DNA from: an uncultured Pelagibacteraceae bacterium
GTDB taxonomy: Bacteria > Pseudomonadota > Alphaproteobacteria > Pelagibacterales > Pelagibacteraceae
DNA length: 64,000 bases
Direction of reading: 5' to 3'
Assembly (NCBI GenBank): GCA_902515185.1
Contig: CABXTN010000004.1
Location: 614 to 64,613, forward strand
Shown here in pieces: positions 1,303-4,655 of the stretch (position 1 is the stretch's first letter; each line of letters starts with the position of its first letter). Position numbers and translations under genes: made by a program. The notes under the pieces are model-generated. The model was not told the origin of the DNA. It ran no database searches and saw only the letters and a program-made list of their open reading frames with translations.

Positions 1303-1330
1303 TTGCATTAAATTCTTTTAATGTTAAATA
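1303..1330 (+). promoter_or_regulatory. Putative sigma70 promoter for the his leader / tRNA-His / hisSZG transcript
   Basis: TTGCAT(1303-1308)-N16-TAAATA(1325-1330) places a start site near ATG 1339. The same TTG-N16-TAAA geometry occurs before sbcB and trxA. Confidence 0.4.
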
Positions 1331-1338
1331 ACCTACCA

Positions 1339-1398
1339 ATGATTAAAAAAGTAAACATCTTAAAAGACACTCACAGACATCACTCGCATGGCTGCTAA
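1339..1398 (+). CDS. Putative histidine leader peptide MIKKVNILKDTHRHHSHGC (19 aa; alternative in-frame ATG at 1321)
   Basis: Four His codons in six positions (CAC AGA CAT CAC TCG CAT, 1372-1389), directly upstream of tRNA-His and hisS-hisZ-hisG. Confidence 0.7.
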   Translation: MIKKVNILKDTHRHHSHGC

Positions 1399-1458
1399 GC
1401 CAGCTATTAATCATTTTAAAATTTAAATTTAATAACAATTAGTATAAAATATAGAAAG

Positions 1459-1533
1459 GCCCTGGTGGTGAAATGGTTATCACGAAAGTTTGTGGAACTT
1501 TAGTTTTTGGTTCGATCCCAAGCCAGGGTACCA
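1459..1533 (+). tRNA. hisR: tRNA-His(GUG), alphaproteobacterial type with G1:U72 and A73, CCA encoded
   Basis: Acceptor GCCCTGG/CCAGGGT-A-CCA; anticodon arm AAAGT-TTGTGGA-ACTTT; T loop TTCGATC. Confidence 0.95.
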
Positions 1534-1537
1534 AAAA

Positions 1538-2935
1538 ATGGAAAAAAATAAAAAACTTATACCTGGATTACCTACAGGTTTTGAAGATAGATGGGGTAAA
1601 AAATTATACCTTAAGAAGGAACTTATTAAGTTAATTGAGGAAAATTTTATAAAATATGGTTTTGAACCATTAGAAACGCCATCATTTGAAATTAGTTCAA
1701 ATATAGGATCATTCCTTGCAGATGATGACAGTAATCCTATGTCTGATGTTTTTACTTTTAATGATGGAGAAAAAAATATTACACTTAGATATGATTTATC
1801 CAGTCCTTTAGCTAGGTTTGTTGCACAGAATAACCAAGAACTTCCACTTCCTTATAAACGTTATGCTATACAAAACGTTTTTAGAAATGAAAAAGCTGGT
1901 AATGCTCGTTACAGAGAATTTACTCAAGCGGACTGTGATATAGTTGGAAATGTAAATCCATCTCAATCAAATGCAGAATTATGTAATTTAATTGCAAGCA
2001 CATTAATTAATTGTGGTCTTAAAAAAGATCAATTTATTATTAATGTAAGCAATCGAAAAATAATTCAAGGTTTATTGGAGGATTTAAAAATTCCAGAAGT
2101 AAAACAGTTAAAAGTAATGAGAGCAATCGATAAGCTTGATAAACCAGGTTTTGGATTAAAAGGTGTTGAAGATTTATTGAAAAAGGAAAGAAAAGACAAA
2201 AGTGGTGCAGTCACAAAAGGTGCAGATTTAAATAATGATCAAGTATTACAAATTATTAATTTTTTGAAAATTACAGAACTTAAAGAATTAAAGGAAAATT
2301 TTAAAAATCCTTTAACTCAACAGGGTATTAATGAGATTGAGGCATTATATGATGTTTTAGCCTATGGTGATTTTATCGATCAGGTTAAAACAAATTTTAC
2401 AATTGTTAGAGGCCTTGCGTATTATGATGGGTTTTGTGTTGAAACTAATCTTAAATTTAAAGTGTCAAACAGCAAAGGTAAAGAAGTTGATATTGGAAGC
2501 ATATGTTCAGGTGGACAATATAATAAGTTAATTTCGAGATTTAAAGGAGTAGATATTCCAGGTACAGGATTTAGCATTGGAGTAGATAGATTATTGTTTG
2601 CTATTTTGCAGTTAGATCAAATAAAAATTAACGATCAAAAACCAGCAATTGTTTGTGTAATGGATAAAAAATATATCAAAAATTACTATGGAATTTTAAA
2701 AATTTTAAGAGATAACGGTATTAATTCAGAAATTTTTTTAAATAGTGACAAAAATCTTGGAAAACAATTGACCTATGCCAATAAAAAAGGATGTCCCGTT
2801 GCGGTTATTTGTGGAGAAAATGAATTTAAAAATAACTCTATTACAATAAAGAATTTATTAGGACCAAAAGAAGAAAATAATCAAATTACAATTCCAAAAG
2901 AAAACTTAATTAATGAAATTAAAAAATTTATCTGA
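1538..2935 (+). CDS. hisS: Histidine--tRNA ligase
   Basis: LRYDLS, FRNE..RYREFTQADCD, IVRGLAYYDG, GGQY motifs. Start moved to ATG 1538 because the ORF-track start (1490) lies inside the tRNA. Confidence 0.96.
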   Translation: MEKNKKLIPGLPTGFEDRWGKKLYLKKELIKLIEENFIKYGFEPLETPSFEISSNIGSFLADDDSNPMSDVFTFNDGEKNITLRYDLSSPLARFVAQNNQELPLPYKRYAIQNVFRNEKAGNARYREFTQADCDIVGNVNPSQSNAELCNLIASTLINCGLKKDQFIINVSNRKIIQGLLEDLKIPEVKQLKVMRAIDKLDKPGFGLKGVEDLLKKERKDKSGAVTKGADLNNDQVLQIINFLKITELKELKENFKNPLTQQGINEIEALYDVLAYGDFIDQVKTNFTIVRGLAYYDGFCVETNLKFKVSNSKGKEVDIGSICSGGQYNKLISRFKGVDIPGTGFSIGVDRLLFAILQLDQIKINDQKPAIVCVMDKKYIKNYYGILKILRDNGINSEIFLNSDKNLGKQLTYANKKGCPVAVICGENEFKNNSITIKNLLGPKEENNQITIPKENLINEIKKFI

Positions 2936-3965
2936 AAAAATCCTAAAGTCAGTAAAGACAATGGGGTTTAAGTATATAGAATTACCCTCAGTAATTGAAG
3001 CAAATCATATTGTTAAAAGATCTGGGGAAAATTTTAGAAAGTTTATATTTTCATTTTCCGATCAAAATGGAAATGAATTATGTTTAAGACCTGATTTAAC
3101 GATTGTTTCGTGTTTGAGATATTTGGAAAATAAATTTAAGGGAAAAGAAAAAATATTTTATAGTGGACAGGCATATAGAAAATCTCAAAATAAAAAAGAT
3201 TCAATTATAAGAAATCAAATTGGATTTGAGATAATCGGCTCACAAAATGAAAAAAATGATGATAAAGAGATAATAAATACTTCTTTGAAATCATTAAAAA
3301 ATTTAAAATATTCTACAGGAACTTTAACACTTGGTAACGTTGAGATATTTAATACTCTAATATCTAAATTAGATATTCCAAAAAGATGGAAGTTAAGACT
3401 TTCTAGACATTTTTGGAGAGAAGAATATTTCAATGACTTATTGAAAAGATTAGAAACAAATTCAGATGTGGACCCAACGATTGTTGAAATTGATAAAAAA
3501 CGTTATTTTAAAATGTTGAAAGAAAATAAATTATCAATTATTGCCGGTAGATCTATAGAAGAAATTTTGAGTAGATTTGACAAAAAAATTAAAGACCCAA
3601 GACGGCCAAGTAAAGGAAAAAATGTATCAAAAATTATTAAAGAATTTTTAAAAATCAAATGTCCAATCAATAAAGCTGCAGGAGAGTTAAATAAATTTTT
3701 TAAAAAATATAAAATTAGTCTAGTTGTAGACCAAAAATATTTTCCTATATCAAATAATAAAGTTTCAAAACTTAATGTGGTTTTTTCCACATCCTTTGGA
3801 AGACAACTTGAATATTATACAGGAATGGTTTTTAAAATTGATATTAAATTAAAAAACAAAGTGACGAATATTTATAATGGTGGAAGATATGATCATTTAA
3901 TTTCTGATCTAGGATCAACAAAAGAAATACCTGCTGTTGGAGCTGCAATAAATTTAAATAATTAA
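2913..3965 (+). CDS. hisZ: ATP phosphoribosyltransferase regulatory subunit
   Basis: LCLRPDLT, LEYYTGMVF, GGRYD, PAVG; lies between hisS and short hisG. Confidence 0.93.
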   Translation: MKLKNLSEKILKSVKTMGFKYIELPSVIEANHIVKRSGENFRKFIFSFSDQNGNELCLRPDLTIVSCLRYLENKFKGKEKIFYSGQAYRKSQNKKDSIIRNQIGFEIIGSQNEKNDDKEIINTSLKSLKNLKYSTGTLTLGNVEIFNTLISKLDIPKRWKLRLSRHFWREEYFNDLLKRLETNSDVDPTIVEIDKKRYFKMLKENKLSIIAGRSIEEILSRFDKKIKDPRRPSKGKNVSKIIKEFLKIKCPINKAAGELNKFFKKYKISLVVDQKYFPISNNKVSKLNVVFSTSFGRQLEYYTGMVFKIDIKLKNKVTNIYNGGRYDHLISDLGSTKEIPAVGAAINLNN

Positions 3966-3968
3966 CTT

Positions 3969-4655
3969 ATGAAAAATATAATCAATATAGGAATTCCAAG
4001 TAAGGGTAGGTTAAGAAAAGATGTTTTAAATATTTTTAAAAATAAAAGATTAAATCTTATTTCAGAAAGAGGAAAGAGGGATTTAATTGGTTCAATTAAA
4101 AATATAAAAAATGTAAAAATACTTTATTTACATGCACGAGAAATAGTTGAAAGATTGGGTGATGGCACCTTAGACATTGGTTTTTCAGGGTATGATTTAC
4201 TTAGAGAAAGTGAAGTCAATACGCAGAAAAAAATTAATGTTATAAAAAAATATGAATTTGGAAAAGCAAATTTGGTTGTTGCTATCCCAGATCCATGGAT
4301 TGATGTTCAAACAGTAGCTGATCTTGAGGAAATTGCGTTTGAATTTAGAGATAGAAAGAAAAAAAGATTAAGAGTTGCAACAAAGTACCCAAATTTAACT
4401 CGAGAATTTTTGTTTTCAAAAGGCGTTACACAATTCCAAACTGTTGAAAGCTTAGGTGCTACCGAAGCATATCCTTTTACAGGTTCTGCTAATTTAATAA
4501 CAGATATTAGTTCTACAGGAGAAACAATTAAAAGTAATAATTTACGTATTTTAAAGGATGGTCAAATTTTAAAATCCCAAGCATGTATTTTTGTATCAAA
4601 AAAAAATTTAAAAAAAAACGGAATAAAAAAATTGGTTAAATTACTTTCTAAGTAA
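3969..4655 (+). CDS. hisG: ATP phosphoribosyltransferase (short form)
   Basis: IPSKGRL, RVATKYP, SLGATEAYP, DISSTGET. Confidence 0.96.
   Translation: MKNIINIGIPSKGRLRKDVLNIFKNKRLNLISERGKRDLIGSIKNIKNVKILYLHAREIVERLGDGTLDIGFSGYDLLRESEVNTQKKINVIKKYEFGKANLVVAIPDPWIDVQTVADLEEIAFEFRDRKKKRLRVATKYPNLTREFLFSKGVTQFQTVESLGATEAYPFTGSANLITDISSTGETIKSNNLRILKDGQILKSQACIFVSKKNLKKNGIKKLVKLLSK

Follow-up and report, generated by a model that had tools for sequence, protein, structure and literature searches.

A probable histidine-sensing leader peptide upstream of tRNA-His, hisS, hisZ and hisG in Pelagibacterales

Background

In the pheM-pheST attenuator of E. coli, a leader peptide controls an aminoacyl-tRNA synthetase. 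Comparative genomics has also predicted His leader peptides in the Bacillus cereus group and Clostridioides, where they precede hisZ and a paralogue of hisS (Naville & Gautheret 2010, PMC2965389; Rodionov et al. 2022, PMC9413887). Here we describe a short leader open reading frame (ORF) with clustered His codons that precedes tRNA-His, hisS, hisZ and hisG in an uncultured Pelagibacteraceae bacterium (the window, meaning the whole 64,000-nucleotide stretch of DNA analyzed). As judged by comparison among loci, this leader is a real feature that is conserved across the order, in both the family of the window and a sister family. It appears to work like the his, phe and trp leader-peptide attenuators but fails the terminator/antiterminator feature that defines them.

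We consider it probable that the leader is a ribosome-based sensor of charged tRNA-His that acts in cis on tRNA-His-hisS-hisZ-hisG. This reading is drawn from four properties of the locus: selection on His at the codon level, contact between the His codons and an RNA structure, the presence of cognate genes downstream and the existence of a second version in the sister family. In a survey of candidate RNAs in Pelagibacter (PMC2704228), this leader goes unmentioned. No description was found in the literature on Pelagibacter or alphaproteobacteria with leader peptide, hisS or tRNAHis, where coverage of subscription papers is incomplete and an earlier description is possible.

Results and discussion

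The leader ORF and selection on its His codons

The leader ORF (1339-1398, including a TAA stop codon at 1396-1398) consists of 19 codons plus the stop and, based on a reading of the sequence and an ORF call, encodes the peptide MIKKVNILKDTHRHHSHGC. Like all other features described for the window, it lies on the + strand. Four of its last 8 codons specify His: CAC at 1372-1374, CAT at 1378-1380, CAC at 1381-1383 and CAT at 1387-1389, forming the cluster CAC AGA CAT CAC TCG CAT (1372-1389) that was also recognized by comparison with relatives. A first-pass annotation of this DNA had drawn attention to an ORF with four His codons, followed by a 60-nt spacer, tRNA-His and hisS/hisZ/hisG, and each of these elements was found in its place by sequence reading, ARAGORN and Pfam. 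Clustered His codons are not significant by themselves in this genome (29% G+C): of its 9,649 small ORFs, 9 that start with ATG and are 10-45 codons long have four or more His within six codons. The weight of the leader ORF therefore comes from its position and conservation, and not from the His cluster alone.

The comparison set consisted of 89 hisS loci from the window's family, covering 6 genera and hisS identities to the window down to approximately 46%. These relatives are not independent of each other; the effective replicates are four peptide types, approximately 20 stem variants and the sister-family version. The first-pass annotation had proposed that relatives across Pelagibacterales be searched for a conserved ORF with His codons and CAC/CAT exchange. 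Both were found: an ATG ORF of 18-38 codons, in frame with the His cluster and ending in or just behind a hairpin, is present at 89/89 family loci (81 distinct ORFs), and another form occurs in the sister family. The His frame is open in all 81 distinct ORFs; read in the two alternative frames, this span is uninterrupted in only 1/81 and 2/81. Between 1 and 5 His codons are located within the 7 codons before the hairpin.

The leader peptides fall into four types (A to D): ..THRHHFHAGC(KLAI); MIINITYRETSRSTHRLCFHSL; ..STLRxxLRGTNRGVHxHFHAG; and, in other genera, MIKKYISTHRHHPHAEHALS or MKNIVLKHSHHHFHAKHGLGN. The His residues of a given type are invariant, while their codons alternate between CAT and CAC. 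This CAT/CAC exchange is illustrated by type C, where codons 27, 29 and 31 split 7:8, 12:3 and 11:4, respectively. At the non-His codons the amino acid changes as often as not, with neither an excess of third-position changes nor any codon periodicity. Constraint that is restricted to the His codons is the signature of a leader peptide and argues against a functional micro-protein.

A His/Cys-rich micro-peptide, such as a metal binder whose proximity to hisS is coincidental or historical, would account for the conserved C-terminal motif T-H-R-H-H-F-H-A-G-C and for the Cys found in two of the four types. This explanation is highly improbable for four reasons. First, codon periodicity is lacking outside of His, and the length (18-38 codons) and sequence of the ORF vary freely. 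Second, some residues of the C-terminal "motif" merely reflect translation of the hairpin sequence, and they shift with compensatory changes in the stem (HAG, HSL, HAE and HAK). Third, the 11-residue peptide of the sister family is unrelated and has only the His run in common. Fourth, scans of five leader peptides against Pfam and NCBIfam (hmmscan, E-values up to 10) produced no family match.

The leader is present as a single copy in its own genome, with the remaining BLAST matches representing AT-rich noise. A His-codon ORF is missing from the 90-nt region upstream of the hisBHAF operon (contig C3, 47233-49928), which means that the leader is not shared by the his regulon in general; hisD lies at a contig end.

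A covarying hairpin at the last His codon

The first-pass annotation listed no stem-loop in this region. On this point it has to be corrected: a conserved, covarying hairpin begins right behind the last His codon and overlaps the stop. In the window, this stem-loop (1386/1388-1404/1407, with the stop codon inside) was identified by terminator scan, minimum free energy (MFE) folding and covariation. It can be drawn with a TGGCT/AGCCA core or as ATGGCTG/CAGCTAT, and it folds at -7 to -10 kcal/mol. The hairpin belongs to the MFE fold of the region, which is more stable than its shuffles (z = -3.35). The terminator scan flags the stem-loop with a tail, TAATCATTTT, that makes a poor U-tract.

Among the 77 distinct sequences, the distance between the last His codon and the base of the stem (6-7 bp, with a folding energy of -6.2 to -11.1 kcal/mol) is 0-2 nt without exception. 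The leader stop codon in these sequences is always located in the hairpin loop, in the 3' arm or no more than 9 nt behind the stem. There are 19-20 distinct arm pairs among the relatives, including GCTGGC/GCTAGC, GCTAGC/GCTAGC, GCAAGC/GCTTGC, ATAGCC/GGCTAT, GCTGAGC/GCTTAGC and GCTAAGC/GCTTGGC. Pairs were counted by script, since the MAFFT alignments are not in structural register. At the six inner pairs, 99.2% of cells show complementarity, compared to 60.4 ± 5.3% (maximum 79%) when the 3' arms were shuffled among sequences. Fifteen of these cells are G.U pairs on the sense strand only; as they would be A-C mismatches on the other strand, the hairpin is a sense RNA structure. The anatomy and conservation of the leader, codon-level selection on His and covariation of the hairpin are thus supported directly.

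RNAalifold recovers this hairpin in all four lineage alignments and, in type B, a nested closing helix around it. The type B helix is 10 bp in length, joins ORF codons 2-5 with the segment right behind the hairpin and shows one UA-to-AU compensatory change in three sequences. In the window, the possible closing-helix strand TTAATCATT (1409-1417) is the complement of the 5' end of the ORF, AATGATTAA (1338-1346), based on MFE folding and duplex energy; the resulting duplex of AAUGAUUAA with UUAAUCAUU has an energy of -6.5 kcal/mol. Types A and D carry their own type-specific complements at the same places, including AAUGAC/GUCAUU, UAGUUA/UAACUA and AUAUAUCUAC/AUAGAAUUAUAUAU. Duplex energies for real pairs are -5.5, -6.3 and -7.0 kcal/mol, compared to -4.05 for cross-type pairs and -3.4 for shuffles. 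These energies and the type B alignment lend moderate support to a closing helix that probably exists in most lineages. If it does, one long interrupted stem would result, with the His codons in its 5' bulge.

Two further structures were noted. Type C leaders (L038:2974-3146; for example, L018, L040 and L084) have a second hairpin inside the ORF, approximately 30 nt before the His codons. This hairpin, CTTTAAGA-N5-TCTTAAAG, is read as T-L-R-x-x-L-K-G and was not picked up by RNAalifold; its arms match perfectly in some genomes, with a single mismatch in the remaining ones. Pairing of the 3' arm of the conserved hairpin with the 5' part of the tRNA (TAGCT) was also considered and was dropped because it exists for one tRNA type only.

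A tRNA-free version in the sister family

In the sister family, which belongs to the same taxonomic order, hisS is not preceded by a tRNA gene. At 30/30 of its loci (21 distinct upstream regions), hisS is preceded by an 11-codon ORF of the form MxxxxHHHYHI, with peptides such as MFKFKHHHYHI, MINKLIHHYHI, MIKLLHHHYHI and MFNFKHHTSHI. Directly behind the stop codon is a covarying hairpin of 9-11 bp, followed by a conserved ACCCC patch approximately 90 nt before hisS. From these sequences, the leader of the sister family looks independent of the version found in the window's family.

The patch (L097:1270-1500, L095, L096, L098 and L120-L144) takes the form ACCCC(C)T and is followed in one genus by TTTTTATATT. 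In that genus, the GGG of the hairpin 3' arm could pair with CCC to form a very short alternative stem before a T-run, a possible minimal terminator; this short GGG/CCC stem is not conserved in the other sister-family genera.

No comparable leader was found upstream of hisS in 20 other alphaproteobacterial families with the same type of HisRS (alpha-type); two 3-His matches among them were rejected as tails of longer frames. Two of these families, both unrelated, have a tRNA-His gene approximately 90 nt upstream of hisS without a His leader (L101:333-409 and L109:335-411), and in L109 a clear intrinsic terminator is located behind the tRNA. The tRNA-His/hisS neighborhood is therefore more widespread than the leader.

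Promoters, spacer and transcripts

A sigma-70-like promoter, P1, is predicted immediately upstream of the leader ORF (1303-1330), with TTGCAT at 1303-1308 and TAAATA at 1325-1330 separated by N16. In relatives, the corresponding sequence is TTGAAT/TTGCAT/TTGAAA-N16-TAAAAG. The distance from the -10 element to the leader ATG is 6-7 nt in most distinct upstream regions and 8 nt in the window. Because the ATG is only 6-8 nt behind the -10 element, transcription is predicted to start at or next to the leader ATG, yielding a leader mRNA that is leaderless or nearly so. A leaderless mRNA had already been suggested in the first-pass annotation, and the conservation of both the promoter and its distance to the ATG is in keeping with that suggestion.

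The same annotation had described an AT-rich spacer between the leader and the tRNA. This description is accurate (60 nt from the leader stop to tRNA-His, 1399-1458) and incomplete: the spacer also carries a conserved -10-like box at the distance expected for a tRNA promoter. From the hairpin to the tRNA (approximately 54 nt), its composition is 87% A+T, 4.9% G and 8.3% C. The best-conserved block of the whole intergenic region lies within this spacer; TTAGTATAAAA is invariant in type A, and across types the block reads TA-N-N-AT followed by AAAAC. In the window, this AT-rich block (1420-1450) contains, 10 nt ahead of the tRNA, the box TAGTAT/TATAAA (1440-1448), and a scan proposes TTTAAA-17-TAAAAT as a candidate promoter, P2. 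The box is 10-14 nt from the 5' end of the tRNA (17 nt from the TAnnAT hexamer in type C), which is as far as clear promoters of the form TTGAnn-N16-17-TAnnAT lie from other tRNA genes of the same genome. At the -35 position, P2 has TTTAAA or TTTTAA, without the G (no TTG). As the -10-like box is conserved at a genuine tRNA-promoter distance, it is possible that tRNA-His and hisS have a second, weaker promoter of their own. The CCACA found in the spacer of relatives was considered as a His-codon mimic for the tRNA anticodon, and this idea was dropped because CCACA is absent in the window.

Expression was examined in assembled marine metatranscriptome contigs from 4 runs, which carry no information on strand, ends, start sites, levels or conditions. 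Contigs from three studies bridge the leader hairpin, the spacer, tRNA-His and the first bases of hisS. One contig also bridges the csp terminator, and DNA carry-over is possible. These contigs give a weak hint that the leader and tRNA-His are co-transcribed. A single contig (run X3) joins 1449 to 1528, skipping almost exactly the tRNA; this joint most likely represents a relative with a different, unaligned type of tRNA-His, and an excised form would be indistinguishable from it in contigs.

If P2 were the only promoter for tRNA-His-hisS-hisZ-hisG, the P1-leader-hairpin transcript could be a separate unit that always terminates, and the leader would influence the operon indirectly (for example, if polymerases paused at the hairpin occluded P2) or not at all. 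The TAnnAT box is kept in all four peptide types at the distance seen for other tRNA promoters, conservation is higher in the spacer block than over the N-terminal ORF codons, and the hairpin with its A/U-rich tract could end P1 transcripts. We nevertheless judge this arrangement to be unlikely. P2 has no TTG at -35, unlike P1 and the other tRNA promoters, and the bridging contigs weakly point to a continuous transcript. Furthermore, two separate units leave unexplained the codon-level selection on His codons alone, beside cognate genes, in two families of differing architecture.

The composition of the leader and spacer bears on a Rho-dependent read-out, in which the same sensor would operate in a manner similar to tnaC/speFL. 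Rho access had been suggested in the first-pass annotation as a possible route, alongside RNase cleavage in the AT-rich spacer and tRNA maturation. Once translation has ended normally, Rho would load on the naked leader RNA and halt polymerase in the spacer, within the tRNA or near the start of hisS. Loading would be prevented by a ribosome stalled on the His codons, where the leader is richest in C, and the hairpin would act to pause polymerase or to set the spacing. The genome has a rho gene, no consistent intrinsic terminator is found, C is relatively frequent and G scarce in the ORF portion (15.6% C, 12.3% G) and the G content of the spacer is depleted to 4.9% from the 12.6% of ordinary upstream regions. 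The conserved ACCCC patch behind the sister-family hairpin points in the same direction, but it would be exposed in both states. The spacer, with only 8.3% C over approximately 54 nt, is a poor rut site, and Rho loading leaves both the strongly covarying hairpin and the fixed contact between its base and the last His codon without a role. A Rho-dependent read-out is thus rather unlikely.

Proposed mechanism

We lean, by a narrow preference, towards a His-specific leader-peptide attenuator, in which P1 reads into tRNA-His-hisS-hisZ-hisG and a stalled ribosome blocks folding of the leader and permits read-through. The start site of transcription, the stalling, the direction of the response and the stopping of transcription by the folded leader are inferred. 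P1 would yield a leaderless or nearly leaderless RNA opening with the 19-codon leader ORF. The His codons of this ORF lie immediately 5' of the hairpin; in most lineages, the start of the ORF and the segment behind the hairpin would extend it into a longer interrupted stem whose 5' bulge holds these codons. A shortage of charged tRNA-His would cause the ribosome to stall on them. With the last, universally kept His codon in the A site, the front of the ribosome would cover the 5' arm of the hairpin, so that the leader could not fold and RNA polymerase would continue into the genes for the tRNA, its synthetase and the enzyme of the first biosynthetic step. With ample His-tRNA, the ribosome would reach the stop codon in or behind the hairpin and leave; in this case, or if no ribosome loads, the leader would fold and a fraction of polymerases would stop in the A/U-rich tract that follows. 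The weak promoter-like element before the tRNA may provide basal expression.

Several observations weigh against this attenuator. The number of His codons is small in some relatives, with only two kept in one large clade and only one in one genome. If the ribosome stalled at the first His codon, which lies 15-18 nt upstream, the hairpin would be beyond its reach. Even without a stall, a ribosome moving towards the stop melts the hairpin for a short time, so that the sign of the response hinges on timing or on pausing of the polymerase. The U-tract behind the hairpin is inconsistent, with 6/8 U in type B, approximately 5 in type A and approximately 2/8 in types C and D. Type C lacks the closing helix, and in type D the segment behind the putative helix has essentially no U. 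The -10-like box before the tRNA permits transcription that bypasses the leader. Finally, RNAalifold found no conserved antiterminator or alternative pairing in the four lineage alignments, in agreement with the first-pass annotation, which had seen no GC-rich terminator with a U-run and had set the locus apart from leaders with a strong terminator/antiterminator pair.

Because there is no antiterminator and the U-rich tract occurs in some lineages only, the read-out appears to be non-classical. A bolder version, which we put forward only tentatively and think doubtful, is that the Pelagibacterales leader is a sensor with a new kind of read-out: a leaderless mini-ORF with its His codons in a stem bulge and no terminator/antiterminator switch, gating an operon led by the sensed tRNA and acting via polymerase pausing that occludes the tRNA promoter, via Rho or via processing.

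Organization of the locus and the variant tRNA-His

The locus begins with the 3' end of a cobT-like gene, located upstream of the cold-shock gene csp (1021-1233, identified by Pfam). Behind csp is a terminator stem-loop, TTGTATAGG...CCTATACAA (1254-1295), which was identified by sequence and MFE fold and has an equivalent behind csp in relatives. This hairpin sets the leader unit apart from csp. Downstream of the leader are tRNA-His (GTG anticodon; 1459-1533, identified by ARAGORN and scoring 58.6 bits with the Rfam tRNA model), the histidyl-tRNA synthetase gene hisS (1538-2935, Pfam), the ATP phosphoribosyltransferase regulatory subunit gene hisZ (2913-3965, with Pfam tRNA-synt_His only and no anticodon-binding domain) and the ATP phosphoribosyltransferase gene hisG (3969-4655, Pfam HisG, 1.5e-36), whose product carries out the first step of histidine synthesis. 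The controlled genes are thus those of the cognate amino-acid system. hisZ is found directly behind hisS in 30/30 relatives checked. The genes are tightly packed, with the start of hisZ overlapping the end of hisS by 23 nt and a gap of 3 nt between hisZ and hisG, an arrangement consistent with one translationally coupled operon.

The tRNA-His of the window has a G1-U72 pair, A73, no G-1 and an encoded CCA. An alpha-type tRNA-His identity set (A73, no G-1) has been published for SAR11 (PMC3937112). The gap between the CCA and the hisS ATG is 4 nt in the window and, among approximately 77 distinct family loci, 4 nt in 40, 5 nt in 15 and 6 nt in 10. The gap is always A-rich and has no Shine-Dalgarno sequence, suggesting that the hisS mRNA is translated either from the precursor or, after 3' processing of the tRNA, as a nearly leaderless message.

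Many genomes of the same genus carry a variant tRNA-His with a non-canonical elbow at the same place (L055:1423-1495, equivalent to G064:C1:205065-205135), and it is likewise found just upstream of hisS in L020, L038, L052, L063, L065, L067 and L069. Its D loop is AATAGTA, without GG, and its T loop is AGCGTAA instead of TTCGAAT. The variant was missed by ARAGORN and scores 50.6 bits with the Rfam tRNA model, compared to 59.5 bits. In 3/4 complete genomes with the variant, a pattern for the canonical His anticodon arm and T loop matches nothing else, and the variant therefore seems to be the sole tRNA-His in those genomes. A complete genome carrying the variant contains a second TTGTGGA...GTTCGAATC stretch matched by the pattern search (G065:C1:390373-390405). 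At least 4 tRNA-His sequence types occur at this locus within the genus.

Significance

In the surface ocean, SAR11 bacteria are dominant; they possess very few transcription factors and rely on riboswitches for most of their known regulation. If the proposed mechanism is true, an order-wide, ribosome-based His sensor would represent a second class of RNA-level control in SAR11 genomes. Supply of the tRNA, the cognate synthetase and the enzyme that opens the amino-acid pathway would be joined in a single loop, providing the most abundant marine bacteria with a protein-free homeostat for tRNA-His, HisRS and histidine synthesis. Without the textbook terminator/antiterminator pair, the leader would be a compact natural case of how little RNA structure a leader-peptide attenuator needs. 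Its natural variants (four peptide types, 20 stem variants and a tRNA-free version) offer a ready-made mutational series. It is the non-classical read-out, together with an operon that opens with the sensed tRNA, that makes this locus worth an experiment in cultured SAR11.

Comparison with known leader systems

A cmscan search of positions 900-1900 (E-values up to 10) did not match Rfam His_leader (RF00514) or the T-box, and hmmscan of five leader peptides did not match PF08047. Other cmscan matches, such as CC0196 (20.2 bits compared to a threshold of 35), fell well short of their gathering scores and were taken as chance, and only the tRNA was accepted. In its logic, the leader comes nearest to hisL, to pheM-pheST and to the predicted His leaders of the Bacillus cereus group and Clostridioides.

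The enterobacterial hisL attenuator (RF00514, PF08047) resembles the Pelagibacterales leader in being a short ORF with clustered His codons upstream of his genes, at which the charging of tRNA-His is read by the ribosome. It differs in three respects. First, hisL has 7 His codons in a row, whereas the leaders described here have 1-5 that are non-contiguous. Second, the Pelagibacterales leader has no terminator/antiterminator pair, but a single hairpin that touches the last His codon and holds the stop. Third, its start is predicted to be leaderless, and its operon opens with tRNA-His and hisS. The His leaders of the Bacillus cereus group and Clostridioides share the placement of a His-codon leader on an operon led by hisZ or a member of the hisS family (PMC2965389, PMC9413887), but they have a classical terminator and antiterminator, contain no tRNA gene, are unrelated in sequence and belong to another phylum.

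Other systems share single features with this locus. In pheM-pheST, a cognate-codon leader peptide likewise governs the synthetase that charges the sensed tRNA; that system is terminator-based in the classical manner, and the tRNA gene lies outside of the controlled transcript. The T-box leaders of hisS in Firmicutes are also cis-acting RNA devices that raise hisS when uncharged tRNA-His accumulates, but they bind the tRNA directly, without translation. In pyrBI and tnaC/speFL, a single structure and the position of the leader ribosome decide termination without an antiterminator, and the pyrBI leader ORF runs into the hairpin as it does here. However, pyrBI senses UTP via polymerase pausing, while tnaC and speFL sense small molecules via arrest peptides whose stalled ribosome blocks Rho. 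None of these three senses the charging of a tRNA or gates a tRNA gene, as is proposed for the leader of Pelagibacterales.

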